Shown: piece by piece, positions 19,060 to 48,310 of the stretch
How the letters are laid out: each line of letters opens with the position of its first letter
How positions within the stretch are numbered: the first letter of the stretch is position 1
NCBI GenBank assembly: GCA_001002135.1
Contig: LCLP01000003.1
Location: forward strand, 41,198-105,197
Reading direction: 5' to 3'
Length of the DNA stretch: 64,000 nt
Origin: Candidatus Pacebacteria bacterium GW2011_GWA1_46_10
Lineage (GTDB): Bacteria > Patescibacteriota > Microgenomatia > UBA1400 > PJMF01
Made by a program: the position numbers and the translations under genes
The notes under the pieces: generated by a model
What the model was told of the DNA's origin: nothing
The model's database searches: none
Seen by the model: only the letters and a program-made list of their open reading frames with translations

Positions 19060-19074
19060 GGAAATTATACAGGG

Positions 19075-21909: not shown

Positions 21910-22160
21910 CAGAAAAGCCTGCATCTTCTCTGTGAAAGAGCGAACCAATCCGAAGCAATTTCGGCGGTTCACTAGAGCAAATAAAACTTTTTCAAGGTTG
22001 TTTGCTCTCCTCAATTCTCTGAAAAATACTTAAGACAACAAAAAACCCCGAAGACTTCGGGGTATTGCTGTTTGATTGTTTGTTGAAAATAAATCACTTC
22101 CCCGAAGTTAGACTTGGGGATAACAATAAGCGCTAGACTTAAATTGAACGTGATTCATTG
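21910..22160 (-). ncRNA. cassette B ~280-nt structured leader (paralog of 19558-19816)
   Basis: Alignable with copy A across ~240 nt; shared blocks agaaaagcctgcatcttctct, aaagagcgaacc, ggttcac-agagc, gctctc, acaacaaaaaac; stems differ by compensatory changes (ccgaagcaatttcgg vs tcagagcttattctga; ccccgaagtcttcgggg vs cccgcttcggcggg). Confidence 0.55.
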
Positions 22161-29359: not shown

Positions 29360-30613
29360 TTGACTAATCGGTCAAATTACTACGATAGAAAACTTACTCG
29401 GCGAATTCTACTATTTTATAGGACGCATAGCAAGCCTAAAACTTACTTTATCATTGCTATAATGACCCCTGAGTTTATGAAAATCCTGATGGTCACCACC
29501 ACCTACTCTCCCAGCCTCAACGGGGTGGCTATCTCCACGTACCGCACCGTCCAAGAATTGCGTCGGAAAAAGCACCGAGTCACCGTTATCATGCCTCATC
29601 ACCCGCAACGAAAGAAAAAACACCCAGACGACATCGAGCTCCCTGCGCTTCCCAATCCGATTCAGAAAGATTACCCCATTCCAGTCCCTGCCAGGTTTTC
29701 TATCCCACAACTGGCAAAAAAACGCTTCGATATTGTGCACTTTCATCAACCGGTGTTGATCGATGTTTTGGCTCAATCGATCGCCAAAGACCAAAACATT
29801 CCCCTCGTTTTTACCTACCACACCAGATACGAAGACTATGCCAAACAATACGCTTCGTTCCTGCCTAAAAAATTCTTAAGCCAGATCGTCAAAGCCAAAA
29901 TCCAAACCATCCTCAATCGGTGTGATGGACTAATCGCTACCACCCAAACCTACCAACAACAATTGCAAAAAACTTTCCAGAAACCGGTCTTTTACGTTTC
30001 TACTGCCGGTTTGACCAAGCGCATGAAAGTCAGAGTGAGTAAACAAACCCTGCGCCAGCACCATCAAATCCCGTTGGATAAAACGGTGTTACTCAATGTT
30101 TCGCGCCAAGTACCCGAAAAAAACCTCCCGCTCATCATCAAAACATTTGCTCTTTTGCCAACCAAATATTTCCTGGTCATGGTTGGTGGTGGTATCAGCA
30201 CCGAGCCGCTCAAAAAATTGAGTCAGCAACTCAAGGTTAATAGCCGCGTGCTCTTTACCGGTCCTCTCCCCCAAGAAAACCTGCCTGATTGGTTTAGTCT
30301 GGCTGATTTTTTTATCTATTCTTCAAAGACCGATACGATCGGCATCAACATTCTGGAAGCGCTGTCTGCCGGTCTGCCGGTGTTTGCTGTCCAAGACCCC
30401 AATGTAGCAGAAGTCATCAAACACGGCAGCAATGGCTTTGTGCTGCCAGCCAAGCCAAAAGCCTTCGCTAAAGCCATTCAACAGTTTCCCTGGCGGCGCT
30501 ATGCCAGTTTCTCGCGCCAAGCGACTACCAGCGCGCATCACTTTTTGATCTCTGAAACCACCAAACAACTAGTTGAGGTATATAAAACCATCATCGCTAA
30601 CAAACATGTTTGA
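29360..30613 (+). CDS. glycosyltransferase family 4 (GT-B fold)
   Basis: C-terminal EX7E-type motif ..GINILEALSAGLPVFAV..; likely true start MKILMVTTTYSP at 29477. Confidence 0.8.
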   Translation: MTNRSNYYDRKLTRRILLFYRTHSKPKTYFIIAIMTPEFMKILMVTTTYSPSLNGVAISTYRTVQELRRKKHRVTVIMPHHPQRKKKHPDDIELPALPNPIQKDYPIPVPARFSIPQLAKKRFDIVHFHQPVLIDVLAQSIAKDQNIPLVFTYHTRYEDYAKQYASFLPKKFLSQIVKAKIQTILNRCDGLIATTQTYQQQLQKTFQKPVFYVSTAGLTKRMKVRVSKQTLRQHHQIPLDKTVLLNVSRQVPEKNLPLIIKTFALLPTKYFLVMVGGGISTEPLKKLSQQLKVNSRVLFTGPLPQENLPDWFSLADFFIYSSKTDTIGINILEALSAGLPVFAVQDPNVAEVIKHGSNGFVLPAKPKAFAKAIQQFPWRRYASFSRQATTSAHHFLISETTKQLVEVYKTIIANKHV

Positions 30614-31727
30614 CATCGTCGTCATCGGGGCCGGTATTTCCGGAGCAACACTGGCTGAGCGCTATGCTTCGCTTGACAAAAAAGTGCTGGTGATCGAAAA
30701 GCGTGACCACATCGGCGGCAACTGCTACGACTTTTACAACCAAGACGGCATCCTTATCTCCAAGTACGGCGCGCACCTGTTTCACACCAACTACGAAGAC
30801 GTCTGGGAATACGTCAATCGCTTCGCTGACTGGTATTTTTACGAGCACCGAGTGTTGGCCAAAGTCGACGGTCAACTTGTGCCGATTCCGGTCAACATCA
30901 CCACGGTTAATAAAGTCTTTGGCTTGAAACTCAAAACCGAACAGGAAATGAAACAATGGCTCAAAAAACACCAGCTCCCCAACCAAAATCCCAAAAACGG
31001 TGAGGAGGCGGCGCTGGCTCGGGTTGGCAAAGTGTTATACGAAAAAATGTTTAAAAACTACACCAAAAAACAGTGGCACAAAGATCCATCAGCACTTGAT
31101 GCCTCGGTCCTCAATCGGATTCCGGTGCGCACCACCTTTGATGACCGCTACTTTAGCGACAAGTATCAATATTTACCGACCGGCGGTTACACTAAGCTCT
31201 TTGAAAAAATGCTTGACCGCCCTCATATTACAGTGCGACTCAACACCGATTATTTTGATGTCAAAAACGAGTTGAAAGGATACCAAAAACTCTTTTTCAC
31301 CGGCCCGATTGACCGGTTTTTCGAGTTTAAATACAGTCTGGAACACCAACTGGAGTACCGCTCACTCAACTTTGTTTGGGAAACACACGATCAAGAGTTT
31401 TATCAGCAAAACGCCGTCATTAATTATCCCTCATCTGTCGACGGTGACTTCACGCGGATCGTGGAGTACAAACATTTTACCAAGCAAAAACACCCCAAAA
31501 CTACTATTTCCAAAGAGTATTCTACCGACTACATTCCAGGCGAAAATGAACCATACTACCCTGTGCCAAATCCCCAGAACCGAGCACTCTACGAAAAATA
31601 CCAACAGGAGGCCAGTCAATTAACCGACATTTACTTTGTTGGCCGACTGGCTAATTACAAGTATTTCAACATGGACGAAGCCTTCAAAAATGCACTGGAT
31701 TTATTCACTAGACTAGAAGAAAAATGA
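30573..31727 (+). CDS. glf: UDP-galactopyranose mutase
   Basis: FAD-binding MFDIVVIGAGISGATLAERYA (true start probably 30606), ..HIGGNCYD.., ..RYASLDKKVLVIEKRDH..; full-length match to Glf layout. Confidence 0.9.
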   Translation: MRYIKPSSLTNMFDIVVIGAGISGATLAERYASLDKKVLVIEKRDHIGGNCYDFYNQDGILISKYGAHLFHTNYEDVWEYVNRFADWYFYEHRVLAKVDGQLVPIPVNITTVNKVFGLKLKTEQEMKQWLKKHQLPNQNPKNGEEAALARVGKVLYEKMFKNYTKKQWHKDPSALDASVLNRIPVRTTFDDRYFSDKYQYLPTGGYTKLFEKMLDRPHITVRLNTDYFDVKNELKGYQKLFFTGPIDRFFEFKYSLEHQLEYRSLNFVWETHDQEFYQQNAVINYPSSVDGDFTRIVEYKHFTKQKHPKTTISKEYSTDYIPGENEPYYPVPNPQNRALYEKYQQEASQLTDIYFVGRLANYKYFNMDEAFKNALDLFTRLEEK

Positions 31728-31884
31728 GTTCGCAACCTTGGTGAGTTTGAAACAATAATAAAAAACTACAACATATGTTTCTGAAAATGACCCCCAAAAT
31801 CTGCCATGCATTTGCCATGCAAATATGGGGTATCACTTTCAGAAAACGTATATCTTGGTTTCCTTAAAGTAGGTTAATTAAAAG

Positions 31885-32976
31885 ATGAAACAACTCAATG
31901 TTGGTGACCACCGCTACACCCTACCCCTGTTTCTACCTGATGCCACCCGCGGGGTGGTGCGGGGATTGTCCAGCCAACAAGTTCAAGAGGTGGGCATCCA
32001 AGGAGTAGTGGTTAATACTTACCATTTGCTGGAACGGCCAGGAACAGTGGTGCTGAAAAAGCTCGGCAGCGTGGGGGCATTGATGAGCTGGCGCGGTTTG
32101 ATCGTTTCTGATTCCGGCGGTTTTCAACTATTTTCCCTCATTCATAAACATCCCAAACTCGGCAAAATCACCGACGAAGGCGTGGTGCTCTACTCCAGTG
32201 AAAAACAACGGCGAAAAACCCTTTTTACTCCCGAAGATTCCATTAAAACCCAGTTTGCCATCGGGGCGGACATCATGATTTGTTTAGACGATTTTTCCCC
32301 CGTAAGTGGCTCGGCCAAACGCTTACAGGAAAGTGTGGAAAGAACTACCGCGTGGGCCAAGCGTTGTAAAACCGAGTTTGAAAAACAGTGTCGGAAAAAA
32401 GGGTTAAGCAAGCGTAATCGCCCATTGTTGTTTGCCGTCATCCAAGGCCACGACCAACCGGCGCTGCGCCAACAAAGTGCTCAGGAACTAATCGAGCTTG
32501 GTTTTGATGGGTTCGGTTTTGGCGGCTGGCCACTTGATAGTAACGGTGATTTTGACTATCATATCGCCCGAGTGATAGCCGACGCCACTCCTAATGATAA
32601 GCCCCGCTTCGCCCTGGGAGTCGGCTCACCGGCCAACATCGTCAAACTGCGCTTGATGGGGTACGACCTGTTTGATTGCGTCCTGCCCACCAGAGACGCC
32701 CGTCATCAACGGTTGTATGTCTTAAACCAACCACTCAACCAAGTAAATTTCTCCGGTAAAAGACCGTGGTATCAACACCTGTATATAGACCGCGGGCGGT
32801 ATGTTGCTGATCCCACGCCGGTCGATCAATACTGTGATTGTCCAACTTGTAAAAATTACTCGAAAGCTTACCTCCACCATCTCTTTAAAATTCAGGATAG
32901 TTTAGCTTTTCAGCTGGCCATCACCCACAACCTCTGGTTTTATGCCCAATTGATGAAAAAGCTCCAACAAATGTAA
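31885..32976 (+). CDS. tgt: queuine tRNA-ribosyltransferase
   Basis: 363 aa; TIM-barrel TGT with zinc subdomain CDCPTCKNYSKAYLHHL (CxCxxC...H). Confidence 0.9.
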   Translation: MKQLNVGDHRYTLPLFLPDATRGVVRGLSSQQVQEVGIQGVVVNTYHLLERPGTVVLKKLGSVGALMSWRGLIVSDSGGFQLFSLIHKHPKLGKITDEGVVLYSSEKQRRKTLFTPEDSIKTQFAIGADIMICLDDFSPVSGSAKRLQESVERTTAWAKRCKTEFEKQCRKKGLSKRNRPLLFAVIQGHDQPALRQQSAQELIELGFDGFGFGGWPLDSNGDFDYHIARVIADATPNDKPRFALGVGSPANIVKLRLMGYDLFDCVLPTRDARHQRLYVLNQPLNQVNFSGKRPWYQHLYIDRGRYVADPTPVDQYCDCPTCKNYSKAYLHHLFKIQDSLAFQLAITHNLWFYAQLMKKLQQM

Positions 32977-37036: not shown

Positions 37037-37390
37037 TTACCACAGTTTGCCGCGATGGCGTTTCCGGCGGGAAATGGAGATGCGTTTCTCTTTTTCTTTA
37101 CGCACGTGACGCATGAGAGAGCGCACAGCTTCATTGACAGCCAGGTATAAATCGTGGGCTTGGCTTTTGACCGTCACCTTGCCTTTACCAGGGATATTAG
37201 CCTCCATTTGCACCGAAGCGCGGTGGGGATCGCTGTCTTTGCGGGTGATGTTTTCCAGGAAAACTCGCAGGCGCGCAATCGGTACCCCCAACCGTTGTAC
37301 TTTGTTAACCTGTTCGTCAATAAACCGCCGCAGTGCTCGGGTAGGCTTCATGTTTTTCGCTTGAATAAGAGTCTTCATGCGGGGAACCAT
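37037..37390 (-). CDS. hpf: ribosome hibernation promoting factor / RaiA-like (start uncertain)
   Basis: ..RFIDEQVNKVQRLGVPIARLRVFL...GKGKVTVKSQAHDLYLAVNEAVRSLMRHVRKEKEK matches YfiA/HPF beta-alpha-beta-beta-beta-alpha fold pattern. Confidence 0.65.
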   Translation of the reverse strand: MVPRMKTLIQAKNMKPTRALRRFIDEQVNKVQRLGVPIARLRVFLENITRKDSDPHRASVQMEANIPGKGKVTVKSQAHDLYLAVNEAVRSLMRHVRKEKEKRISISRRKRHRGKLW

Positions 37391-37426
37391 GCTGGTATTA
37401 GTGTACCACGAGTCATTTTGGGCGAG

Positions 37427-38038
37427 TTACATTTCCCGCCGGCCTTCTAGGGCGCGGGCCAAGGTCACCCCGTCAGCGTATTCGATGTCGGCCCCGATCG
37501 GCAAACCATGGCCAATCCGGGTGATTTTCATTTCCTTCAAATGGGGATCTTTGCTTTGCTTGAGCATTTCAGTGATATACAGTGCCGTCGCTTCCCCTTC
37601 CAGTGTTGGGTTAGTAGCCAAAATCAGTTCATCAACTGTCTTTAGACGTTTCAGAATGTCCTTCAAATACAACTGATCAGGCCCAATATTATTTAAGGGT
37701 GAAATCGCGCCGTGTAGCACGTGATAGCGGCCGTGATAGGTATCTGACCGTTCTAGTGCCAAGAGATCAAGTGGCTGTTCCACCACGCACAGCATTGTTT
37801 CGTCACGTGACTGATCACTACAAATCCCACAAGGATTGTGTTCTGCCACGTTGTGACAGTTATCACACATCACGGTTTCCTTTTTGAGCGCTGTTAATTT
37901 GTCAGCAAAGTCAGTCAGTTCATGATCTGGGTTATGAAGCAAGTAAAACACCAAACGCTGGGCAGATTTTGGGCCAATACCAGGCAAGCGTTCAAATTTT
38001 TCGATTAGGCGTGTGACTGCCTTGGGCAACTTCTGCAT
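37427..38038 (-). CDS. recR: recombination protein RecR
   Basis: 203 aa; HhH N-terminus, C4 zinc finger CDNCHNVAEHNPCGIC, Toprim domain. Confidence 0.9.
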   Translation of the reverse strand: MQKLPKAVTRLIEKFERLPGIGPKSAQRLVFYLLHNPDHELTDFADKLTALKKETVMCDNCHNVAEHNPCGICSDQSRDETMLCVVEQPLDLLALERSDTYHGRYHVLHGAISPLNNIGPDQLYLKDILKRLKTVDELILATNPTLEGEATALYITEMLKQSKDPHLKEMKITRIGHGLPIGADIEYADGVTLARALEGRREM

Positions 38039-38081
38039 ACATCAACCTTACAAAGACAAACTCCATCAAACAATAGGAAAA

Positions 38082-38732
38082 TTATAATCCCAGTTTCTCC
38101 TCTACGGTCTGCCAAACGGCTTGCTCAACGTCTGTCACTGGTTTGTTGGCGTCAATCATGACCCAGCGCTCACCTTTATTTTCTTTGGCCAGTTGTACAT
38201 ATGCCTCTCTGACTTTTTGGTGAAAACCGTCATTCTGCATATCCAGCCGATCAACCTTAGCTGTGCCGTTGCGCCGTTTCAGACCGACTTCCACCGGTGC
38301 ATCAAGTAAAATCGTCAAATTCGGCACAGTCTTTTTGGTCGAAATGTCATTCAACTGTTCAATTAACTCTCGACCAAAACCCCTAACCATCCCTTGATAG
38401 ACCACACTGCTATCGCGGCTGCGATCCATTAACACAATCTTCCCCTCTTCAAGCGCCGGAATCACTACTTCCCGGTAAATTTGTGCCCGTGCGGCCTGAA
38501 ACAACAGCACCTCGGTCGTGTCTTTCATGCCGGTATTTTTAGCTGATAACACCACTGCTCGGATCTGCTCACTAATCACTGTGCCGCCTGGTTCACGAAC
38601 CGCTACCACGTCTTTACCCGCGGCTTGCAGACGCTTCATCAAGAGACCTGCCTGAACTGTTTTCCCGACACCTTCACCACCTTCTAGGGCGATCAGAAAT
38701 CCTGGTTGAGAGTGGTTGGTTGATGGCTGCAT
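38082..38732 (-). CDS. tmk: thymidylate kinase
   Basis: P-loop ALEGGEGVGKTVQA, DRSRDSSVVYQG (DRx), LID region. Confidence 0.85.
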   Translation of the reverse strand: MQPSTNHSQPGFLIALEGGEGVGKTVQAGLLMKRLQAAGKDVVAVREPGGTVISEQIRAVVLSAKNTGMKDTTEVLLFQAARAQIYREVVIPALEEGKIVLMDRSRDSSVVYQGMVRGFGRELIEQLNDISTKKTVPNLTILLDAPVEVGLKRRNGTAKVDRLDMQNDGFHQKVREAYVQLAKENKGERWVMIDANKPVTDVEQAVWQTVEEKLGL

Positions 38733-38826
38733 GAAACTGACTGTCTTATTTCATACCGCAATCGCGACCAACACTCAACCAGCAAAAAGACTGGGTGAAG
38801 CGATCGGCAATGGATTAGGCAAGGAT

Positions 38827-39309
38827 TTAGTGACGACCGGTGCTGCCAAAACCACCGCGATTTTTGGTGTTAAACTTCGTTTTCTCCACAAACTGGACTG
38901 GCTCACGCTGGAGAATAATCGCCTGGACAATGCGCTCGCCTTTTTTGATTGTCACGGCTTTATTGGTAAAATTGAAGAGCACGGCGTGGTACTCGTCACT
39001 GTCACCGCGGTAGTCAAAATCCCCCACGCCGATGCCGTTGGGCATCATTAAGCCTTTCTGGTGCAAAGAACTGCGAGCGACGATCAGCACCCAATGATCG
39101 GCGGGGATTTGTAAAGCAATGTTGAGTGGGACAAGGGCCGTTTTTTTCGGACCGATAGTGGTTTCTTGCCTGGCATAGAGATCAAAAGCGGCCGCCCCGC
39201 TGGTTTTGTACTCTGGTAAAGGTAAATTTTTATCAAAACGCTTAATGGTAATTTTCATCATTCTAGTAATATACCCTACTTCGCAGCAGTCACCTCTCGT
39301 TCTTGTCAA
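38827..39309 (-). CDS. dut: dUTP diphosphatase
   Basis: dUTPase motifs ..SGAAAFDLYA.., ..GVGDFDYRGD.., C-terminal RGGFGSTG; probable start MMKITIK at 39264. Confidence 0.85.
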   Translation of the reverse strand: MTRTRGDCCEVGYITRMMKITIKRFDKNLPLPEYKTSGAAAFDLYARQETTIGPKKTALVPLNIALQIPADHWVLIVARSSLHQKGLMMPNGIGVGDFDYRGDSDEYHAVLFNFTNKAVTIKKGERIVQAIILQREPVQFVEKTKFNTKNRGGFGSTGRH

Positions 39310-39367
39310 ATATTGTCCGACAGACTTAAAAAGTCATTTTCTGAAACATATCTCTCTTTTCCAAAAC

Positions 39368-39417
39368 GACTCTCAATTTTTGTAATACAATGTATTACAG
39401 ATTTAAGGAGTCATTTC
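39368..39417. repeat. 50-nt palindromic element (copy 1), GACTCTCAATTTTTGTAATACAATGTATTACAGATTTAAGGAGTCATTTC, upstream of dut
   Basis: 49/50 identical to 47091-47140; core perfect palindrome TGTAATACA-A-TGTATTACA flanked by GACTC/GAGTC. Confidence 0.6.
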
Positions 39418-39429
39418 CAAAAACCGACA

Positions 39430-40233
39430 TTACTTCCCACCCTTTTTCCATTGACCATTCATTAGCACCGGCGCATAGACATCATCAGCAGGTTCGATCA
39501 AGAGAGCCCTTAACTCGATCTCAGTCGGCGGTCGATCTTGCCAAACCACTGGTTGATTGACATCCGTTACCACGGCGAGCGGTCGACGTTCATCGCTCTC
39601 TCCCATCTCGAGTGCCGCGGCAATGCCGACTGCCTCGGCCACATTAACCTGCGTCATCTCGAGTCTTTTGCCAAATAAATCCGGCTGACCAATTTTATTA
39701 ATCAACACTTCAAACCCACAACTAGCGATCGCCGTACCTGTCACTCCCCACTTGAGCGGTACCGTTTTACTGTCGGTGACAATCACCCCCAACTCCCTAA
39801 CCTTGAACTGCTGGCGGAGAAACTGCCAAATATTATTGGTGGTCACTTGTAGCTTTTCCGGCCACAGTACGTAATGGTTGTCGGCGTTTGACTGATCAAT
39901 GCCGGCGTTGACCGCGAGAATCGAGTTTTTGATGGTTAACATCAAATCATATTTAGATTGAGTTGGCTCCAAATACAAATCAGCTTCTCTGCGCACTAAG
40001 TCGTGTTTTAGATCTCGATCACTGCCGTCAACCGGCACCAGTCTGTTTTGCGCAAAACTGATGATTTTGGAAGTGATGACGACAAAACTTTTCTCTGGCA
40101 GTTGAGCAATATTTTGGGCCAAAAATTGGTGGAGGTCTTCACCTGGTTGAAACAGCGGTGTGTGAATGGCAGTCACGTGCATTGGCGGTATTGTACCAAT
40201 CAAACTGATTACTGGTACAATCTGACCATTCAT
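39430..40233 (-). CDS. CofE-family (F420-0:gamma-glutamyl ligase-like) protein
   Basis: 267 aa; ..VVITSKIISFAQNR.. and ..AVNAGIDQSNAD.. resemble CofE/PF01996 signatures. Confidence 0.55.
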   Translation of the reverse strand: MNGQIVPVISLIGTIPPMHVTAIHTPLFQPGEDLHQFLAQNIAQLPEKSFVVITSKIISFAQNRLVPVDGSDRDLKHDLVRREADLYLEPTQSKYDLMLTIKNSILAVNAGIDQSNADNHYVLWPEKLQVTTNNIWQFLRQQFKVRELGVIVTDSKTVPLKWGVTGTAIASCGFEVLINKIGQPDLFGKRLEMTQVNVAEAVGIAAALEMGESDERRPLAVVTDVNQPVVWQDRPPTEIELRALLIEPADDVYAPVLMNGQWKKGGK

Positions 40234-40816
40234 GATTGACGCAGCTAATGGCCATAAGGTCGCTACTAGCTACCAAGCGGTGAAGCAGTTTATCAAAAAC
40301 GCTCGACGACTGAAGAAAAAAATCGTCCTCACTCAGGGTTCATTCGACATGCTCCACATTGGCCATGCCCGCTATTGTCGTGAGGCGAAAAAGCACGGCG
40401 ACACACTGATTGTTGGTGTTGATAGCGACGAGAAAATTCGCGCCCGCAAAGGCGAGGGGCGACCAATCGTGCCTCAAGCAGAACGCTTAGAAATGCTCAC
40501 TCACCTGGAGTACGTCGACCTCGTTGTCCTCAAAGAACTCAACACCCCCAAATGGGAACTGATCAAAATTGTCCGACCTGATGTCTTGATTGCCACCGCG
40601 CAGACATATACCCAACCTCAAATTGAAGAACTCGAGCAAATCTGTGGCCAGGTAGTGGTGTTACAGCCGATGGCGACTACCTCCACCAGCGCCAAGTTGC
40701 GCCTGATGCAGATCGAGGCGGCCCAAAAAATTCAGCAGACACTGACGAGCAAATTAATTAGTACCATCGAGGAAACTCTGCGTGAGCTTAAAGGCGAAAA
40801 AAAACCAGCCCGTTAA
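40232..40816 (+). CDS. cytidylyltransferase-like nucleotidyltransferase
   Basis: 194 aa; (H/T)xGH-type motif TQGSFDMLHIGHARY as in TagD/RfaE-II/NMNAT-like Rossmann nucleotidyltransferases. Confidence 0.6.
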   Translation: MIDAANGHKVATSYQAVKQFIKNARRLKKKIVLTQGSFDMLHIGHARYCREAKKHGDTLIVGVDSDEKIRARKGEGRPIVPQAERLEMLTHLEYVDLVVLKELNTPKWELIKIVRPDVLIATAQTYTQPQIEELEQICGQVVVLQPMATTSTSAKLRLMQIEAAQKIQQTLTSKLISTIEETLRELKGEKKPAR

Positions 40817-41666
40817 AATTCAATCCAAGAAACAACGGCAAGTCTTGGTGGTCTACGTACCGGTAGTCCATGAGGGGTATCATCAGTTTTTCAGTCGTTT
40901 CCCAGATGCAAAAGAATTGTGGCTGATTGGCCGTGATTTGGCCCACGAATTGAGGGCGTTGCAAAAAGATTTACGGGCGCTGGAACCAACTCAAGTGAAA
41001 AAACTGCTTGATGCTTGGCAAAGGTTTAACAAAATCGAGGTCCTCACCCCCCAAAACTTACTCCGTTTGCAACAGACTCCTGCTCAACTCGTCTTTGCCA
41101 ACGATGAAATCAGTCGTCACTTAGTGAAAAAATACTTCGCTGGTCATCGGGTTTTATTCGATACTACTTTTCTGATGTGGGATGAAAAAAGCTCACTGAA
41201 AGAGAATGAATTACAGGAATATATCACCATTTCGAGTAAAGAATTTGATCAAAAAATGCTCCAACTGGCGGTGGCCGAGTCAGTTAAAAGCGGTGACTGG
41301 TGGCGGCATGTCGGCGGGGTGATTTTAAAAGACGGCGCGGTCCTCCTTAAAGCACACAACCAACATGTGCCAACCGAGTACGAAGTCTATTATGAGGGCG
41401 ATCCCAGAGCCAACTTTCATAAAGGTGAGTACTTAAAGGTCTCCACCGCTATTCATGTTGAGGCGTATTTGATCGCTCAGGCGGCCAAACAAGGTATTTC
41501 CCTCGAGGGGGCCGATCTATACGCTACCCACTTCCCCTGCCCTGTCTGCGCCAAACAGGTGGCCTATAGTGGCATTAAGCGGGTGTTTTTTCGTGAGGGC
41601 TACAGTGTCTTAGACGGCGAAAAAGTGCTGCGCGCCAATGGCGTTGAATTGATTAAAGTGAGCTAA
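40782..41666 (+). CDS. dCMP/cytidine deaminase-family protein with N-terminal extension
   Basis: C-terminal zinc motif HVEAYLI...THFPCPVCAKQV (H-x-E ... PCxxC); ~150-aa N-terminal region of unknown function. Confidence 0.65.
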   Translation: MSLKAKKNQPVKIQSKKQRQVLVVYVPVVHEGYHQFFSRFPDAKELWLIGRDLAHELRALQKDLRALEPTQVKKLLDAWQRFNKIEVLTPQNLLRLQQTPAQLVFANDEISRHLVKKYFAGHRVLFDTTFLMWDEKSSLKENELQEYITISSKEFDQKMLQLAVAESVKSGDWWRHVGGVILKDGAVLLKAHNQHVPTEYEVYYEGDPRANFHKGEYLKVSTAIHVEAYLIAQAAKQGISLEGADLYATHFPCPVCAKQVAYSGIKRVFFREGYSVLDGEKVLRANGVELIKVS

Positions 41667-42147
41667 CTTCCCCTTTACCAATTTTGAAACGGGTGGGTTT
41701 GAAACCAGGCTTACCAATGTCCGGAATAATCAGTTGGGCGTGCAGATGTTTAACGGTACCAGCGGAGTAACTGGTATCCCCAAACCGCATCGCCAACCCA
41801 CCACCGGGAATGTCGAACTCCTTTTCTGCCCAAGAAAGCATCGTAAAGTAATCTGCTCCCTCCTCTGGTGAAAGTTCACTGAGACGCTCTTTGTGGGTTT
41901 TGAGAATCAGCATGAAATGATCGCGCGTGTTTTCGTACGGCCAAGCGTTGCGGGTAAACACCCAGTGCTTGGTTTCTTTCAAAATCGGGGTACGGTGATA
42001 CTTTTTGAGGACATCAAAACAAAATGGACATTCTCCCGCCTCAATGATTTCCTCCATCACTTTGACCTGTTCTGGTTCGCGAGTGTTGTCGATGTCCACG
42101 AATTGACTGGGACCGGTAAACTTGGTGGATTTGGCTAATGGTGACAT
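41653..42147 (-). CDS. HIT-superfamily protein, GalT/Ap4A-phosphorylase-like branch (HxHxQ)
   Basis: 164 aa; N-terminal CxxC (CPFCFD), C-terminal VKHLHAQLIIP (H-x-H-x-Q) nucleotide-binding motif. Confidence 0.5.
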   Translation of the reverse strand: MSPLAKSTKFTGPSQFVDIDNTREPEQVKVMEEIIEAGECPFCFDVLKKYHRTPILKETKHWVFTRNAWPYENTRDHFMLILKTHKERLSELSPEEGADYFTMLSWAEKEFDIPGGGLAMRFGDTSYSAGTVKHLHAQLIIPDIGKPGFKPTRFKIGKGEVSSL

Positions 42148-42197
42148 ATTTATTTTTGGCCTATATCAAAATTGATATCTCCATTTTTCGATCTATT

Positions 42198-43100
42198 TTA
42201 AACTGAAACAGGGAAATCCCAAATCCCCGGGTGTGGATCATAATCGCTTAACTCAAAATCCGTCGCCCGGTATTGAAAAATGTCCTGGTGTTTTTTCTTC
42301 AAGGTCATGGTCGGAAACGCTCGATCTTCGCGCTTCAGCATTTCCTCTACTCTAGAAATCTGGTCTACGTAAATATGAGCATCAGAAATGGTGTGGACGT
42401 ATTCATAGGGCTCAACCCCCAACACCTGTGCCACAGCGATCAGCAAAGCGGCGTACTGGACCATATTGGCTGGCACACCGACCGGCACGTCACCGGAGCG
42501 CTGGAACATGTGGAGAGTGAGTTTGCCATCAAGGATTCGGAAATGAATCCAGCCATGACAGGGACAGACCACCACTTTTTGGGTCTTGCCCTTCCGTTTT
42601 CGACGCGCAATATATTGCGGTACCCAAGGAGTAATAAAATGCGTACGCAGATGCGGCAACACTTTCATTTCTTCAATGATGTCCTTAAATTGATTGTGTG
42701 TCGGGCCTTCACTGGTCGGAAAATCATGAAACGCCGCACCATAAGAGCCGGGCCCTAAGTCACCTGGAGCCAAACCACGCTTTTTGGTTTTGCGCTCCAC
42801 CCCCCATGGCGCCCACCAGTAGCAGCCAAACTCCTCGAGTTGTTTGAGCGTTCTGGCGCCATTGATGAAGGCGAAAATCTCACCAATAGCCTGCGTCCAC
42901 ATCTTCTCACTAATCTTGCGTTCAGTGATCATCGGGAAGCCATTAGCAAGCTTAAAGTGCATTGGTTTGGGGCCGATGAGTGTCAATGCGTCAGTTTCTA
43001 GTTGAGTGCCAGTGCGCACGCCCTTTTCCAGGATTTCCCGCAACAAATCCTTGTATTGATGATCGGGGGTGCGTTGATTGATGGGAAGATGCTCAAGCAT
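42198..43100 (-). CDS. thyA: thymidylate synthase family protein (ThyA-like, with insertions)
   Basis: 300 aa; catalytic-Cys motif VVVCPCHGWIHF and ..FQRSGDVPVGVPANMVQYAALL.. align with ThyA PCH and QRS(C)D...YALL blocks; ~35 extra residues in two Lys/Arg-rich inserts. Confidence 0.7.
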   Translation of the reverse strand: MLEHLPINQRTPDHQYKDLLREILEKGVRTGTQLETDALTLIGPKPMHFKLANGFPMITERKISEKMWTQAIGEIFAFINGARTLKQLEEFGCYWWAPWGVERKTKKRGLAPGDLGPGSYGAAFHDFPTSEGPTHNQFKDIIEEMKVLPHLRTHFITPWVPQYIARRKRKGKTQKVVVCPCHGWIHFRILDGKLTLHMFQRSGDVPVGVPANMVQYAALLIAVAQVLGVEPYEYVHTISDAHIYVDQISRVEEMLKREDRAFPTMTLKKKHQDIFQYRATDFELSDYDPHPGIWDFPVSV

Positions 43101-43105
43101 AGCGC

Positions 43106-43843
43106 CTATTCTAACGTATATGGCACGACGTGCTTGAACCGCGTGCGGTTAATTTGATCGATCACTTGTTTGACTATTTTTTTATCCACACCGGTGACTT
43201 CGTCGGGTTTTTTGCTCTGGTCTATGAGTTGCGTCATTACTTTGTCCGCGTCTTCGTACGTAAACCCCAGCTCTTTTTCATCAGTTTGACCGGTCCAAAG
43301 ACCAGCTGAGGGCACTTGAGTGATGAACTTCTCAGGGATCTTGAGCTTGCGGGCTAACTCTCTCACCTGAGTTTTATAGAGGCCAACAAGTGGTTCCACA
43401 TCCGAAGCACCATCACCGTAGCGGGTAAAGTACCCAAGATAGTGCTCCGATTTATTCTCTGTGCCACACACCAGTGCAGCCATTTTTTTAGCCAGATCAA
43501 AGACCGCGATCATTCTCACCCGCGCCATCACGTTACCTAGTCTGATTTTGTCCGCGGCGTCAATCAAGAGAGTCGCTTGGAACTGATCCACCGTGGAACC
43601 AATATTAATCTCACGCCAATTTTGTTTGGGAATTTCATTCCAGGCTGCTATTTCCTTGGCGTCTGTCGTATCTTGCTCGTGGTAAGGCAGAAAAACCGGA
43701 TACACGTCACCCGCGCCCAGCGCTTGAGTTAATAGCGTTAATGACACCGCGCTATCAATCCCACCAGAAACGGCAATCACTCCCCTCGTTTTTCCAGCCT
43801 GCTGATAGGTTTGCTGTAAAAAGCGAACTAACTGGTCACTCAT
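43106..43843 (-). CDS. nadE: NH3-dependent NAD+ synthetase
   Basis: 245 aa; PP-loop GVIAVSGGIDSAVS, ..GTENKSE.. Confidence 0.9.
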   Translation of the reverse strand: MSDQLVRFLQQTYQQAGKTRGVIAVSGGIDSAVSLTLLTQALGAGDVYPVFLPYHEQDTTDAKEIAAWNEIPKQNWREINIGSTVDQFQATLLIDAADKIRLGNVMARVRMIAVFDLAKKMAALVCGTENKSEHYLGYFTRYGDGASDVEPLVGLYKTQVRELARKLKIPEKFITQVPSAGLWTGQTDEKELGFTYEDADKVMTQLIDQSKKPDEVTGVDKKIVKQVIDQINRTRFKHVVPYTLE

Positions 43844-43869
43844 ACTGGTTATTATACGGGTCTAACAAA

Positions 43870-44448
43870 TTATGGCTGGTAAAGTTGGTGCTTTTGAATA
43901 TACTTGGCCACTTTTGGATTAACCAACCGGTCGATCTCTTCACCTCTTTTCACTTTCTCTCGCACCTCTGTCGAGGAGTACATCCATTCCGGCGCGTCTT
44001 TTAACGGCATCATGTTCTGGTAAAGTGGTTTAAAAGATGAACCTTCACGAGGATAGACGTAGAAACGGTATTTTTTGAGCATATCAAGGTACGTTCTTTC
44101 CTGACTATCCACCCACCGGTGAAAATCCGGCAGTCGATCAGAACCAACGATCCAAGAGAACGTATGCTGTGGGTATTTGGCCGAAAGATAATCAAGCGTC
44201 TCGTGCGAGTAGCTTACCCCCTCTTTTTCTTGCTCGTACATCTCTACTTTCACTCGCGGATCATCAACCATTAGCTGAACCATCGCCACCCGGTGCTGCG
44301 CCAGACTCATCGGTTTGGCGAAGGGATGCTGTTTGGCCGGCACGTACCGGACTTCGTCGGCGATTTTGTGCTCCAGAAGATAGTGCGTAATTTCCTGATG
44401 GCCGCGGTGAGGTGGATCAAAAGCACCACCAAATAAAATGATATTCAT
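43870..44448 (-). CDS. nadD: nicotinate-nucleotide adenylyltransferase
   Basis: 192 aa; GGAFDPPHRGH (HxGH) motif. Confidence 0.85.
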   Translation of the reverse strand: MNIILFGGAFDPPHRGHQEITHYLLEHKIADEVRYVPAKQHPFAKPMSLAQHRVAMVQLMVDDPRVKVEMYEQEKEGVSYSHETLDYLSAKYPQHTFSWIVGSDRLPDFHRWVDSQERTYLDMLKKYRFYVYPREGSSFKPLYQNMMPLKDAPEWMYSSTEVREKVKRGEEIDRLVNPKVAKYIQKHQLYQP

Positions 44449-44542
44449 AGTTTCATCTTTTCACTTTTTTCTTGGCAAGCCGAACTCGTCCCGCCACGGC
44501 GGGACTCAAACATTCGTTTGCGGTAGAAAAAAGGAAAAGATT

Positions 44543-46714
44543 TCACTCTTTCTTTTTTTCTGCAATCTTCTTTTTCTTTCGCTTGGCTAGAGTCGCCTCT
44601 CGTTTCGCCTTGCGCTCAGCGCGCTTCTTTTGCATTGCCACCCACTGAGCCTTAGTCAACTTAAAACCTGGCTCCGGTTTACTCCAACTGGCCCAATCAC
44701 AATCCGGATAGCGGCTGCAGCCGTAGAAATTGCGGCGCCAACGGGTGGGCTTAATGACAATGTCACCATCACCACACAACGGGCATTTTTGGCCCGCCAG
44801 TTTCTCGATAATGTTTTCCGTAAACTTGCAATCTGGGAAGCGACTACAGCTTCTGAATTTCCCAAACTTGCCTGCTCGAATAACCACTTCCCCACCCTCA
44901 CTCTTACCACACAGCGGGCACTGCTCACCAGTTTTTTCGACCGGAATTTCTGCTCGATCGGCATGCTTCTCAACGTCAGTGATTTTCTTGGCCAGTGGCG
45001 TGAAAAAGGTTTTGACAACTTTGCGCCACTCTTTCTCTCCCCTGGCAATACGGTCCAAGTCCTCTTCCATCTCAGCCGTGAAGTCGTAGTCCACAATGTC
45101 GGGGAAGTGTTTCAGTAAGAAATCGCTGACTACTTTGCCGATCGTGGTGGCCCAAAAACGTTTTTCGAGCCGCTCCACGTAACCCCGTTCCACAATCACC
45201 GAGATAATGCTGGCATAGGTACTCGGGCGACCAATCCCCCGCTTTTCCAATTCTTTGATCAGTGAGGCATCGTTATAACGAGGGGGTGGCGCAGTAAACT
45301 TCTGCATGGGATTGAGGTCAGCCCAATACACTGTTTGCCCTTTCTGTAGTGCTGGCACAATGACATCCTGTGAGTTTTTAAAGAGCACTGTCCAACCAGG
45401 AAACTGCTGAACCGAACCACCGGCGGTTAATTCAACTATTTCCGCCTGGTGCCTGGCTTCAATTGTGACTTTTGTTTGCTTGTACTGAGCCGGGCTCATC
45501 TGGCTGGCAATAAACCGGCGCCAGATCAGATCATAGATTTTCTGGTGCCGCTCAGTTAAACCAACCGCTTTAGTCAGCAATTGATCAGGTTTGAGGGCGG
45601 CGGTGGTGGGCCGGATAGCCTCATGAGCTTCTTGGGCGTTTTTCGAACGGTTTACAAACACCCGCGGTTGGTCAGAAAGATATTCCTTGCCAAAGTCCGC
45701 TTCGACCACTTTGCGAGCCGCCTCAATTGCCGAGCTGGCCAACGTAAACGAATCGGTACGATGGTAAGTAATTAAACCTTCTTCGTACAGCTGTTGGGCT
45801 AAACTCATAGTTTGGCGCGCCGAATAGCCATACCGATTGGCCGCGGCTTGTTGTAAACCAGCAGTCGCAAACGGCGGTAGGCTCTGGCGCTCGCGGTCTT
45901 TTTGTTCAACACCGGTGACGGTATAACTTGCTTTCTTCAGTATCTCAACAATCGGGGTAACGTCTTTTTCCGTCTTCGGTTCGTATTTTTTGGCCTTTAC
46001 CACGGTCACTTGAGCAACAAACGTCCCCTCGGGGAGTTTTTCCAACACCTTACCGTCTTTAAAGATGGTGGCTTTTTCATCTGTTATGTTAAGACCAACC
46101 TCAATTTCCCAATATTCGGCCGGCTGAAACGCCTCAATCTCCCGTTCACGCTCCACGATCAGCCGCAAGGCCACTGACTGCACCCGACCAGCCGACAAGC
46201 CGCGGCGCACTTTCTTCCACAACACTGGGGAAAGCTTGTAGCCAACCAAACGATCAACCACACGGCGAGCTTGCTGTGCGTCTACCAAAGCCATCGAGAT
46301 TTTGCCAGGGTGTTCAATCGCCTTGAGCACGGCGCCCTTAGTAATTTGATGGAAAACTGCTCTCAAAAATTCCGGCGCGCCGCCTTTTTGACTGAGTAAA
46401 TGTTTGACGTGCCAAGCAATCGCCTCCCCTTCACGATCAGGGTCCATAGCCAGATACACTTTGTTTACCTTGGCCGCTTGTTTTTTCAGTTGTGAAACCA
46501 CTTTTGACTTACCGGGAACCAATTCATACTCTGGTTCAAAGTCATGCTCAAGGTCGATTCCCAAACTGCTTTTGGGTAAATCACGCACGTGCCCGACTGA
46601 GGCCTCAACTACATACGTGTCAGCTAAATAACTTCTCAGTTTACGGGCTTTGGTGGGAGATTCCACCACTACTAAGCTGGTTTGCTGGCTAGCCATACTG
46701 GAACGACTATACAC
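44543..46714 (-). CDS. topA: DNA topoisomerase I
   Basis: 723 aa; Toprim N-terminus, active-site Tyr region, C-terminal Cx2C...Cx2C zinc ribbons and Lys-rich tail. Confidence 0.95.
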   Translation of the reverse strand: MYSRSSMASQQTSLVVVESPTKARKLRSYLADTYVVEASVGHVRDLPKSSLGIDLEHDFEPEYELVPGKSKVVSQLKKQAAKVNKVYLAMDPDREGEAIAWHVKHLLSQKGGAPEFLRAVFHQITKGAVLKAIEHPGKISMALVDAQQARRVVDRLVGYKLSPVLWKKVRRGLSAGRVQSVALRLIVEREREIEAFQPAEYWEIEVGLNITDEKATIFKDGKVLEKLPEGTFVAQVTVVKAKKYEPKTEKDVTPIVEILKKASYTVTGVEQKDRERQSLPPFATAGLQQAAANRYGYSARQTMSLAQQLYEEGLITYHRTDSFTLASSAIEAARKVVEADFGKEYLSDQPRVFVNRSKNAQEAHEAIRPTTAALKPDQLLTKAVGLTERHQKIYDLIWRRFIASQMSPAQYKQTKVTIEARHQAEIVELTAGGSVQQFPGWTVLFKNSQDVIVPALQKGQTVYWADLNPMQKFTAPPPRYNDASLIKELEKRGIGRPSTYASIISVIVERGYVERLEKRFWATTIGKVVSDFLLKHFPDIVDYDFTAEMEEDLDRIARGEKEWRKVVKTFFTPLAKKITDVEKHADRAEIPVEKTGEQCPLCGKSEGGEVVIRAGKFGKFRSCSRFPDCKFTENIIEKLAGQKCPLCGDGDIVIKPTRWRRNFYGCSRYPDCDWASWSKPEPGFKLTKAQWVAMQKKRAERKAKREATLAKRKKKKIAEKKKE

Positions 46715-46759
46715 TATCTGCCCAGTCGGCGGCAGTTTCTGGTGAAGAGAAAACTTGAC

Positions 46760-47041
46760 CTAAATTTTTTTGGATTTCTCCCGACTCTCGAGAAATTCAA
46801 GCATCTTTTGACGAATAAAAGGAGTGACGCCTCTCTTTTTTTGAGCGGCAATTTTCCGCAACCGAGCCAAATCAACTACTGAAAAGCGAATAGCCACCAC
46901 CTTTTCAAGATTCTTGGCATAAACACTTTTAGGCCGCTGGTTAAAATCGATGTAATCAGAAAGGTTGTGAGTCTGCCAAAAACTTTTTTCCTCCTGATAA
47001 TTTTTGAATTTTGGAATTTGTTTGAAACTCTTCTTGGGCAT
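46760..47041 (-). CDS. BrnA-like RHH antitoxin-family protein (COG3514-like), no cognate toxin adjacent
   Basis: 93 aa; EEKSFWQTHNLSDYIDF...KVVAIRFSVVDLARLRKIAAQKKRGVTPFIRQKMLEFL matches BrnA pattern (FWxTHDxxDY ... RL/K..A...G.pY). Confidence 0.6.
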   Translation of the reverse strand: MPKKSFKQIPKFKNYQEEKSFWQTHNLSDYIDFNQRPKSVYAKNLEKVVAIRFSVVDLARLRKIAAQKKRGVTPFIRQKMLEFLESREKSKKI

Positions 47042-47078
47042 CTAAACTTTCTCCAAACTTTTAGTTCGCAACACCTTT

Positions 47079-47147
47079 GTTTGTAGAAATGACTCTCAAT
47101 TTTTGTAATACAATGTATTACAAATTTAAGGAGTCATTTCTACAAAC
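47079..47147. repeat. palindromic element (copy 2) with extended outer arms GTTTGTAGAAAT / ATTTCTACAAAC, 50 nt upstream of the BrnA-like gene
   Basis: Core 47091-47140 identical to 39368-39417 except one A/G; whole element is a ~69-nt nested palindrome. Confidence 0.6.
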
Positions 47148-47215
47148 AGATATCCCTCTCAACCGAAACACCCCGCTAAACCGAGTAACTCATAAAGCAA
47201 CATCACCCGATGAGA

Positions 47216-48310
47216 TTATTTCAGCGACCATCTATTACCAACTTGCTCGATCAAACCAAGCATCTCGAGTTCAACCAACTGAATAGCCAGTTCCGACGAG
47301 TTACAAGCCAGCTTTTCCTGTAAAATATCGGTTGTCATCGACTCGTTCCAGAGTAACTCACACACTTTTCTTTTCAACTCAGGCAGTTGTGCCCAAGTCT
47401 GGCGCTGGACTTCAATTTTGCGAAACTGTCGCTTGGTCAAGCCAAACATTTCTCCTGCACTATTCACCAACTGCGCCCCCTCATTGAGGAGTTGTTGCGT
47501 TCCTACCGAAAACCGGCTGTAAATCGAGCCTGGGACCGCCCAAACATCTCGGCCTAACTCTGCAGCACAATGAGCGGTAATTAAACTGCCGCTATCCTCA
47601 GCTCCCTCAATCACCAGCACTCCTTCACTCATCCCTGCCACCACGGTGTTACGGGCCGGAAAATTACCTGGTTTAGCTGGTACATGTGGTGCAAAAGGAC
47701 TGAAAAAAGTCGCTCCTCGATCCAAAAACCAATACAGTAAAGCTCGCTGTTCGGGCGGATACATATGATCAAAGCCAAAACCCAAAACCCCCACTGTTTT
47801 ACCACCAGCTGCCAAGGTGGCACGCTGAGCCGCTACGTCTACTCCATACATAAAACCGGAAACGATCGTTTTGCCAAACTGCACGAGTGGTGGAATAAAG
47901 TCTCGCACCACTCGCCGCCCATAATCAGTGATGCTTCTGGTTCCCACCACCGCTAAAAAAGCCTCTTTCCCACTCAGTTGCGGACCGCGCGCGAACAAAA
48001 GCGGCGGATGACGGGGCAACTGTTCTAAAAGTGGCGGAAACTCCCCCTCTGCTGGCAATACTACCCGAATACCTTTTTCACTCAAAGACTCAAAATATGA
48101 ACTACTGGTGTACTCTTTTTTAAACTTTCTAATTGATTGAACAACCTTTTCTTGTAGCTTTATTTTTTGCCAGATATTACCTTTTCCGACCCAAAAATCA
48201 GCTTCCGTGCCTTCGGCTTCTGTCAGGGTTTTTAAAACCTGATGAAACGTCACCGCTCCGACGCCATCTAAAGCATAGAGAGCTGTTTGAAATTCCTTTA
48301 ACCATTGCAC
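47216..48310 (-). CDS. dprA: DNA processing protein DprA (Smf)
   Basis: 364 aa; Rossmann-like DprA core ..GVLVIEGAEDSGSLITAHCAAELGRDVWAVPGSI..; upstream of topA as is common. Confidence 0.85.
   Translation of the reverse strand: MQWLKEFQTALYALDGVGAVTFHQVLKTLTEAEGTEADFWVGKGNIWQKIKLQEKVVQSIRKFKKEYTSSSYFESLSEKGIRVVLPAEGEFPPLLEQLPRHPPLLFARGPQLSGKEAFLAVVGTRSITDYGRRVVRDFIPPLVQFGKTIVSGFMYGVDVAAQRATLAAGGKTVGVLGFGFDHMYPPEQRALLYWFLDRGATFFSPFAPHVPAKPGNFPARNTVVAGMSEGVLVIEGAEDSGSLITAHCAAELGRDVWAVPGSIYSRFSVGTQQLLNEGAQLVNSAGEMFGLTKRQFRKIEVQRQTWAQLPELKRKVCELLWNESMTTDILQEKLACNSSELAIQLVELEMLGLIEQVGNRWSLK

Follow-up and report, generated by a model that had tools for sequence, protein, structure and literature searches.

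This report concerns a 50-nucleotide (nt) palindromic element that occurs twice in a 64-kb stretch of the genome of Candidatus Pacebacteria bacterium GW2011_GWA1_46_10 (the whole stretch, 64,000 nucleotides of contig LCLP01000003.1, is called the window in the following), and a small ribbon-helix-helix (RHH) protein encoded next to one of the two copies. The protein belongs to the family of the antitoxin BrnA, which is part of the BrnT/BrnA type II toxin-antitoxin system of Brucella abortus (PF04365 and PF12441), reportedly described by Heaton et al. in 2012. Ordinary brnTA loci contain TGTA..TACA palindromes between the -35 and -10 boxes, and brnT is located directly upstream of brnA and overlaps it (L141, L143, L144 and L081). 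The closest described counterpart of the element is the operator of CopA_SO, the RHH antitoxin of the ParE_SO/CopA_SO module in the Shewanella oneidensis prophage CP4So, which binds 5'-GTANTAC(N)3GTANTAC-3' (PMC8706911). On a 25-bp duplex the dissociation constant (KD) is approx 16 nM, and binding is abolished once the palindromes are destroyed; CopA_SO also binds and represses via a highly similar motif in the megaplasmid pemKI promoter (PMC8706911). The footprint of RelB in Streptococcus pneumoniae includes palindromes that cover the -10 box, and its contacts recur at intervals of 10-11 bp along a single helix face (PMC8071376). Antitoxin palindromes were also found upstream of genes outside the respective module, for which control by the antitoxin was proposed, in the case of MqsA (csgD and rpoS; PMC4894380) and SavRS (PMC5913840). 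The MqsA site at csgD is located 78 bp upstream of the transcription start (PMC4894380).

Both copies of the element in the window carry the core GTAATAC-AAT-GTATTAC, an exact instance of the CopA_SO motif GTANTAC-N3-GTANTAC. One copy (site A) is located between dprA and the gene of the 93-aa PF12441 protein, which is followed by topA-nadD-nadE-thyA-HIT; the other one (site B) lies between a cofE-like gene and dut-tmk-recR-hpf, and all of these genes are encoded on the minus strand. The favored reading, to which a probability of roughly 55% is given, is that the core is bound at each of the two sites by the BrnA-family RHH protein, which has no toxin partner; it would control its own expression at site A and stand ahead of dut-tmk-recR-hpf at site B. 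What is observed is which motif the core represents, to which fold and family the protein belongs, that the window lacks a toxin gene, and that the core has changed in concert at both sites of a second genome. From these we infer that it is the 93-aa protein in particular which binds, and that dut-tmk-recR-hpf might be affected. Taken separately, binding of the protein to both sites is judged probable from the sequences compared, while a real effect on dut-tmk-recR-hpf is held to be possible but somewhat doubtful.

The 50-mer is found at 39368-39417 (copy 1, site B) and 47091-47140 (copy 2, site A), and the two copies are identical at 49 of 50 positions, with a single A/G difference. Further copies and modules of the source genome were sought within the window; no additional 50-mer was present there even with up to three mismatches (<=3), and none of 100 shuffles gave a match. 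A 25-base pattern had no match in a metagenome collection either, but this collection evidently lacks the organism, which JGI samples are known to contain. A looser likeness between the copies extends over 78 nt at 86% identity (39364-39441 vs 47087-47164). The core, TGTAATACAATGTATTACA, is a perfect 19-nt palindrome of the layout T-GTAATAC-AAT-GTATTAC-A, in which the centres of two 7-bp GTANTAC sub-palindromes are 10 bp apart; TGTANTACA is confined to the two elements within the window. At site A, core and inner arms are enclosed by outer arms, giving a nested palindrome with arms of 35 nt that are 86% complementary, whereas the outer arms are degraded at site B (14 of 25 flanking pairs complementary vs 20 of 25 at site A). 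The near-identical 50-mers, the perfect core and the nested palindrome at copy 2 had been described in an initial annotation made from the sequence alone, and all three were recovered. Its spacing, given there as about 50-100 nt upstream of dut for copy 1 and 50 nt upstream of the RHH gene for copy 2, holds for the latter, whose end is 49 nt away from the RHH start codon (47041; 62 nt from core to start). Copy 1 is 58 nt away only from a mechanically assigned TTG start of dut, but approx 106-119 nt from the likely ATG at 39261, with the core approx 119 nt upstream of this codon. Site B begins approx 5 nt past the stop codon of the cofE-like gene and site A approx 65 nt past that of dprA. A near-direct repeat, TTCCAAAAC / TTCCAAAAAC (39352-39360 and 39414-39423), flanks site B and resembles a target-site duplication; site A has no comparable flanking direct repeat, its flanks being inverted repeats. 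An Rfam scan of the window returned a tRNA and a glmS ribozyme only, with no match at the elements. Small plus-strand open reading frames (ORFs) starting in the core (39390-39560 and 47077-47286) were discarded, since they share sequence only inside the repeat and run antisense to real genes.

The 93-aa protein (UX28_C0003G0100, Candidatus Pacebacteria GW2011_GWA1_46_10) is identical in 24 of 24 contigs examined (57 index blocks name it). It matches the PF12441 (CopG_antitoxin) profile with 43 bits at a cutoff of 28 and can be aligned over its full length with 30 PF12441 proteins, among which I9, P10, K11, F12, K13, E18, F21, W22 and H25 are near-invariant. The N-terminal IPKFK..EE..FW..H segment is present, and the arginine in the strand is invariant across the BrnA family alignment. 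With the L081 BrnA as query, tblastn detected the RHH gene of the window at E = 4e-5. An AlphaFold2 model of the monomer (mean predicted local distance difference test score, pLDDT, 80.5; block means >90 for residues 51-80) has the RHH fold, with helices 55-67 and 72-91 following an extended segment. The best match of the model in the PDB (Foldseek) is the DNA-binding domain of CopA_SO (6iya; probability 1.0, root-mean-square deviation 1.1 A, 27% identity), and all top matches are RHH domains (6iya CopA_SO, Arc, PutA, CopG, ORF56 and NikA). A homologue search with the single sequence returned the protein itself only, and a profile of four homologues was required to find others; probably short RHH genes are under-annotated, which would explain this outcome. 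No BrnT or RelE/ParE relative was detected in the window by single-sequence tblastn, a search of limited sensitivity (best BrnT E = 1.3). Between dprA and the RHH start there is no BrnT-like ORF, the only ORF being one of 69 aa on the plus strand, antisense to dprA. The 93-aa protein is a genuine BrnA-family RHH protein, but its locus does not qualify as a BrnTA system, since the window holds no toxin gene. The orphan BrnA-like gene lacking a BrnT partner before dprA, as proposed initially, therefore stands, and the search for BrnT covered the entire window.

If the protein acts as proposed, each GTANTAC half, being a 7-bp palindrome, would be suited to one RHH dimer, and the 10-bp distance of the halves would place two dimers on one helix face, as for CopA_SO, Arc and RelB. 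The RHH protein would control its own expression at site A and would also bind ahead of dut-tmk-recR-hpf at site B. Because no promoter is recognisable and both sites follow co-directional stop codons, the likeliest action would be to block read-through from the cofE-like gene or dprA, or to repress a promoter nearby that is weak or has escaped recognition; masking of a -10 box in the classical manner is less likely.

To place the core, exact matches to TGTAATACANTGTATTACA were collected from 596 Gb of sequence with one genome per species. The core was found in at least 119 loci/species (Clostridia, Veillonella, Patescibacteria, Verrucomicrobia, Actinobacteria, Proteobacteria, archaea and others), compared to roughly ten to twenty matches expected by chance, an estimate for uniform base composition. 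In most of these at least 119 genomes it precedes RHH genes. Among the matches listed, the ORF adjoining the palindrome falls into one BLAST-connected cluster of small (RHH) proteins at 80 loci. A Pfam scan of 91 sequences (90 flanking ORFs of the matches listed plus the window protein) gave DUF6290 in 60/91 and RHH_1 in 46/91, besides a few MazE, RelB or TacA matches and one BrnT; a DUF6290 example (L022) matches NCBIfam NF046040, 'RelB family antitoxin'. The next gene at the loci listed usually encodes a RelE/ParE toxin of approx 88 aa and sometimes a PIN, Doc or HEPN protein. Many of the core-bearing loci listed belong to Patescibacteria and comprise a 71-aa RHH gene and a RelE/YafQ-like toxin gene. 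The identical 19-mer is present in front of a brnT-brnA operon of Dehalococcoidia (L081), and 6 of 19 core carriers among viral contigs (loci L148-L166) show the same arrangement. Altogether, the core TGTAATACA-N-TGTATTACA precedes RelB/DUF6290-RelE, ParD-like RHH plus YafQ-like, RHH plus PIN, MazE plus Doc and brnT-brnA genes, and one operator appears to be common to several antitoxin families. The idea in the initial annotation that the element is an RHH operator is therefore borne out for the motif, the core being the published operator of CopA_SO (PMC8706911). The exact 19-mer was not found in the literature text searched, which did not cover figures, so that it may have been reported.

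The toxin-antitoxin loci listed also have a defined promoter arrangement. The core is located mostly 7-25 nt upstream of the start codon (median 13 nt), 71/89 loci listed have A as the central base when read along the coding strand, and TTGACA (<=1 mismatch) ends exactly 12 nt upstream of the core in 35/89. With this spacing, the TACAAT of the core is the -10 box of a standard promoter at these loci. The palindrome is 8-12 bp longer per side in approx 13% of the loci listed, compared to 0.6% at control positions. In these Veillonella and related loci (L040, L048, L056, L071 and L091; also L046, L047 and L073) the ribosome-binding site AAGGAGG forms one arm and its complement the other, and the window arms GACTCC../..GGAGTC resemble what might be left of such a Veillonella-type pair. 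Other regulator boxes were considered because the neighbouring genes function in deoxynucleotide and DNA metabolism, but none of these (NrdR, LexA/SOS, the CopY/BlaI box TACAnnTGTA and MerR-type spacer boxes) fits the sequence, and the association of the core with RHH antitoxins across genomes, together with the CopA_SO motif, left no need for them.

Relatives were traced via TopA homologues of 75-79% identity, which gave ten related lineages. The gene order from PBP2 to hpf is nearly the same in all of them, and the order dut-tmk-recR-hpf is kept throughout. In six lineages (L131, L132, L133, L134, L136 and L137), dprA is located 11-60 nt from topA without RHH gene and without element, and dut overlaps or abuts the cofE-like or the dihydrofolate reductase (DHFR) gene in the four element-free lineages whose contigs extend there. 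Three lineages hold a homologue of the RHH gene in the same slot between dprA and topA, each with a different core. The homologue of L140 is full-length (95 aa), that of L130 is an intact ORF of 62 aa (9801-9986) which the source assembly leaves unannotated and which has no obvious ribosome-binding site, and that of the group L135/L138/L139/L146 comprises 58 aa. Both the 62-aa and the 58-aa homologue lack the N-terminal half of BrnA. The homologues are 38-47% identical to the window protein, and the RHH residues are kept across the four diverged lineages. The lineages bearing a homologue have the same element architecture, with conserved inner arms and the 3' flank ATTT(C/T)(T/G)ACAA(A)C. The cores read TGTAATACA-T-TGTATTACA in the window, TGAACCACA-A-TGTGGTTCA in L140, AGGACCC-TTTT-GTTGGCCT in L130 and TGTC(C/T)GACA in the 58-aa lineage.

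As in the window, L130 has a second element between the cofE-like gene and dut, and its two copies form a 62-nt inverted repeat of 85% complementarity. The cores of sites A and B are identical at 22/23 positions (96%) in the window and at 21/25 (84%) in L130, compared to 34/42 (81%) and 33/42 (79%), respectively, for arms plus flank. Between the window and L130, core identity is 28-40% and that of arms plus flank 60-71%; for all between-genome pairs the values are 28-70% and 52-71%. The core is hence best kept within a genome and most changed between the window and L130, which is expected of a specificity determinant common to two sites. Compared with L140, the window core is 65-70% identical and thus not below the arms. 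The concerted change of the core, observed in two genomes only, is the main evidence that both sites may answer to one factor, with gene conversion between the copies as the neutral alternative. The link between the two sites drawn in the initial annotation accordingly gains from L130, which has elements at the same two positions with cores that match each other and differ from those of the window. The further step, namely that dut-tmk-recR-hpf is under the same regulator, is not established: neither copy overlaps a recognisable promoter, the sites lie just after the upstream stop codons, and the module is inverted. Similarly, the suggested domestication of the antitoxin fits the homologues of two relatives, which have lost the N-terminal half, but a role as transcription factor over the dut genes is not established.

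The contigs examined with the 58-aa gene (L135, L138, L139, L146 and L147, from four sequencing runs) end inside the palindrome, part of which makes up the first 40-45 nt of these contigs, which suggests that assemblies break at a perfect palindrome or repeat upstream of this gene, so that only a partial element is seen. The core sequence of this lineage, TGTCCGACA, occurs at 39314-39322 of the window, between site B and the dut start and next to TTGACA. It was rejected as a site, since the count in the window is 2 vs 0.79 expected and 20/100 shuffles reach 2. The L140 and 58-aa-lineage cores showed no antitoxin association in viral contigs. Other inserts of toxin-antitoxin type are located in the stretch from thyA to the dCMP deaminase gene (DUF6922 plus AbiEii at 15870-16756 in L133; PhdYeFM plus ParE at 12302-12829 in L137), and such modules seem to have landed in this stretch repeatedly.

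Several observations weigh against binding and control at the two sites by the RHH protein. The 58-aa lineage is without a second site near dut. No sigma-70-type promoter was recognisable in or beside either element on either strand by scan or by eye, promoters of this lineage being uncharacterised, and a -35 box is absent from both strands at the window elements. The core is 62 nt away from the RHH start and approx 119 nt from the dut start, compared to the median of 13 nt at the toxin-antitoxin loci listed. Furthermore, the core has T at its centre when read along the coding strand, and the AAGGAG-like arm is directed away from the genes; with centre A and this arm on the plus strand, the module of the window is inverted relative to the usual arrangement, to site A of L130 and to L140. 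The palindromy spans 47-71 nt, far beyond the need of two RHH dimers. A simple beta-strand recognition code, which was considered and dropped, does not support the pairing of protein and core, because RHH proteins with differing DNA-facing residues in the strand have the same core. Compensatory double changes are found in 10 of 22 consensus pairs of the palindrome and suit the function of a hairpin equally well; a protein site with symmetry would show the same pairing as a hairpin of RNA or DNA. Finally, the arms and flanks, here called the scaffold, recur with another core. A covariance model built from five full elements, which scores site A with 79.5 bits and site B with 73.9 bits, detected a third member (site C) between glf (30573-31727) and tgt (31885-32976), where no regulator gene adjoins. 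Its core is a direct repeat, TGCCATGCA-TT-TGCCATGCA, unrelated to that of sites A and B, and its arms resemble those of L130 (GATACCCC..GGGGGTC, then ATTTTCAGAAAC). The scaffold thus numbers three members in the 64 kb of the window, besides two in the 22 kb examined of L130, and a member with another core makes it a repeat family that does not depend on the RHH protein.

It follows that duplication or gene conversion could account for part of the 50-nt likeness, and an alternative can be built on this: the elements would belong to a small family of intergenic palindromic repeats, similar to repetitive extragenic palindromic (REP) sequences or miniature inverted-repeat transposable elements (MITEs), and would act mainly as hairpins, i.e. 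as terminators, stabilisers of transcript ends or insulators between co-directional genes; sites A and B would owe their near-identity to a recent duplication or gene conversion, and any RHH binding at site B would be incidental. All six full elements follow a co-directional stop codon, four of them overlapping it or at a distance of <=~5 nt (window B, both L130 elements and L140) and window A and C at 50-65 nt. Every variant folds into a long hairpin (-23 to -39 kcal/mol, z -3.9 to -12), with -38.8 kcal/mol at site A (z = -9.6 on the minus and -12.0 on the plus strand) and -23.1 kcal/mol at site B (z = -3.9). A short U-rich run of 3-5 U (AUUUCU, GUUUUGG or AUUUUU) is found after the stem in every full element. 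Site A of the window is inverted compared to site A of L130 but a direct repeat of site B, as if B had converted A, and the repeat around copy 1 would fit a target-site duplication. Among the marks of dispersed REP or MITE sequences, a copy number of three in 64 kb and this possible 9-nt direct repeat, at site B only, were observed. An intrinsic terminator alone was rejected, since it leaves the core unexplained. The ordinary terminators of the source genome also differ, with short G+C stems and flanking A and T runs; the hairpins here are A+U-rich (26-42% G+C) and were not called by a consensus terminator scan. Hairpin function further leaves unexplained why an exact, experimentally defined RHH operator stands beside an RHH gene and why the core is the part best conserved within a genome and most divergent between the window and L130, and the covariance model found no match in approx 150 kb from relatives without the RHH gene. 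On balance the reading as a hairpin family is regarded as rather unlikely. In favor of the element as the operator of the BrnA-like protein stand, among other points, the core and the one brnT-brnA operon that has it; the 50-nt identity put forward initially includes a part that belongs to the scaffold family.

Should an RHH protein bind the core, it might still be another one, for example a RelB- or ParD-type antitoxin of a complete module encoded elsewhere, with the local protein as bystander or competitor. The same core serves several RHH families, many loci of Patescibacteria combine it with a 71-aa RHH gene and a RelE/YafQ-like toxin gene, and CopA_SO cross-binds the promoter of another module (PMC8706911). 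No such module was detected in the 64-kb window, however, a change of the core accompanies that of the local RHH homologue in each of L130, L140 and the lineage with the 58-aa protein, and operators usually adjoin their own antitoxin gene, which favors the local protein; a foreign chief binder is considered improbable. Still less credit is given to a decaying remnant, in which a module was inserted between dprA and topA, lost its toxin and had its promoter-operator copied once, with no function left. The patchy occurrence of the RHH module (4/10 lineages), the shortening of homologues to 58-62 aa, the uncalled L130 homologue without clear ribosome-binding site, the other insertions of toxin-antitoxin type in the same region of L133 and L137 and the fact that orphan antitoxins are common (PMC7192599) would agree with it. 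Against decay stand the intact ORF with its identical sequence in all contigs examined, the RHH residues kept at 38-47% identity, the perfect palindromes of both cores with 49/50 identity of the copies, and the concerted change of the core at the two L130 sites. Binding of both sites by the local RHH protein remains the favored reading.

The features of the locus are compiled in Table 1. Immediately before topA, the motif ATAGTGTATAGTCGTT recurs in the window and in all relatives, irrespective of an RHH gene; it reaches into the 3' end of the preceding gene, dprA or one of the short RHH genes. By its sequence it looks like a -10 box (TATAGT) that would yield a nearly leaderless topA mRNA. The mechanically assigned GTG start of topA at 46714 is probably wrong, the ATG at 46696 agreeing with the relatives. 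Since topA keeps its own motif in all genomes and appears to be driven by a promoter that does not depend on the RHH gene, it is not to be counted in an RHH operon, and an 'RHH-topA operon' was dropped. Elsewhere in the window, a glmS ribozyme/riboswitch (9067-9273, minus strand; 58.7 bits, gathering score 37) and a tRNA-Ala(CGC) (1603-1676) were identified. Two repeat pairs of non-coding appearance, their members approx 2.4-2.5 kb apart, a 27-nt exact one with the look of a terminator hairpin (GGAAAAGGAAGATGCAGGCTTCCTTTT, 19073-19099 / 21596-21622) and one of 68 nt at 79% identity (19559-19626 / 21911-21978), likely reflect a tandem duplication of a gene plus its flanks.

Table 1. Positions of the elements and of the neighbouring genes in the window.
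Feature	Position	Strand	Remarks
Site A core	47104..47122	no strand	19-bp perfect palindrome; matches the CopA_SO motif
Site A full nested palindrome (hairpin scaffold)	47078..47148	no strand	outer arms GTTTGTAGAAAT/ATTTCTACAAAC, inner arms GACTC../..GAGTC, core
Site B core	39381..39399	no strand	identical to the site A core
Site B full element	39356..39424	no strand	inner arms and core as in site A; outer arms degraded
Third scaffold member (site C)	31777..31846	no strand	24.2 bits, E = 0.013; arms align, core does not
RHH gene, BrnA-family, 93 aa, UX28_C0003G0100	46760..47041	-	PF12441; proposed binder of the core
dprA	47216..48310	-	co-directional, directly upstream of site A
ATAGTGTATAGTCGTT motif, conserved, -10-like TATAGT	46702..46717	-	9 nt before the likely topA ATG 46696
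cofE-like (F420-ligase-like)	39430..40233	-	co-directional, directly upstream of site B
dut-tmk-recR-hpf	37037..39261	-	candidate regulated unit downstream of site B
dut (dUTPase)	38827-39261	-	likely ATG start
tmk (thymidylate kinase)	38082-38732	-	
recR (RecR)	37427-38038	-	
hpf (S30AE/HPF)	37037-37390	-	

If the RHH protein binds both sites, the locus would be a clear natural case of an antitoxin that lost its toxin and was retained to act on housekeeping genes as a transcription factor. The host would be a candidate-phyla bacterium with a reduced genome, a setting in which almost no regulators are characterised. With its protein of 93 aa, its 19-bp site and the specificity variants that sister lineages offer naturally, the locus would also make a simple test system for the co-evolution of RHH proteins and operators. 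Binding without effect at the dut site would leave an ordinary orphan antitoxin with a duplicated operator. The occurrence of the exact operator across phyla suggests that DNA-binding module and site move as a unit between toxin-antitoxin systems, which bears on cross-regulation. A wider picture can be drawn, which is speculative and as a whole rather unlikely: in some Pacebacteria, a former antitoxin would run a mini-regulon of two sites that couples dut-tmk-recR-hpf (deoxythymidine triphosphate synthesis, recombination and ribosome hibernation) to the expression of the regulator itself, its operator would be a swappable hairpin tip co-evolving with the protein (four cores in four lineages), and GTAATAC-N3-GTATTAC would be a portable cross-phyla operator of at least five antitoxin families (RelB/DUF6290, ParD-like, BrnA, RHH-PIN and MazE-Doc). 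Such a portable operator, if true, would imply widespread potential cross-talk between toxin-antitoxin modules.

Compared with known systems, the locus is closest to ParE_SO/CopA_SO, with which it has in common the operator motif and an RHH binder, here with CopA_SO as best structural match (6iya), and which sets a precedent for two sites with pemKI (PMC8706911). CopA_SO, however, has an N-terminal RHH domain and a ParE partner, whereas the window protein is of the BrnA family with a C-terminal RHH domain and no toxin in the window. The CopA_SO sites are located in promoters, while the window has no recognisable promoter and the core stands at the tip of a 47-71-nt hairpin scaffold. In addition, the second site of CopA_SO is found at another toxin-antitoxin module, that of the window in front of housekeeping genes of DNA metabolism. 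With BrnT/BrnA, the window protein shares the N-terminal IPKFK..EE..FW..H motif followed by a C-terminal RHH domain; unlike in this system, the RHH gene is preceded by dprA, and the window lacks BrnT. With centres 10 bp apart, the GTANTAC halves fit the contacts of RelB, and most of the genomes listed with the exact core have the NF046040/DUF6290 family adjoining, but RelB/RelE differs in the RHH subfamily, in the toxin acting as co-repressor and in an operator that overlaps the promoter. A palindrome recurring at non-module genes is shared with MqsA and SavRS, and the MqsA site at csgD is a precedent for a distal position; these systems differ in that the toxins are retained and the folds are helix-turn-helix. 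How much the MqsA regulon matters physiologically is a matter of dispute. REP, Correia and MITE sequences are likewise imperfect, hairpin-forming palindromes of 50-70 nt in several copies just after stop codons between co-directional genes. The elements of the window differ from them in being three copies in 64 kb, in the core swapped between copies and in a defined protein operator in two of these; no transposase was identified, none having been searched for. Already known are thus the operator motif, the autoregulation by RHH proteins, the binding of antitoxins at second sites (CopA_SO, MqsA and SavRS) and orphan antitoxins (PMC7192599). As far as could be checked, the breadth of one 19-bp operator, exact across many phyla and several antitoxin families, has not been described. 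The locus departs from the known systems in the combination of a BrnA-family protein without a toxin in the window, an operator on the tip of a conserved hairpin with a lineage-specific core, and a second site in front of housekeeping genes in a candidate-phyla bacterium.

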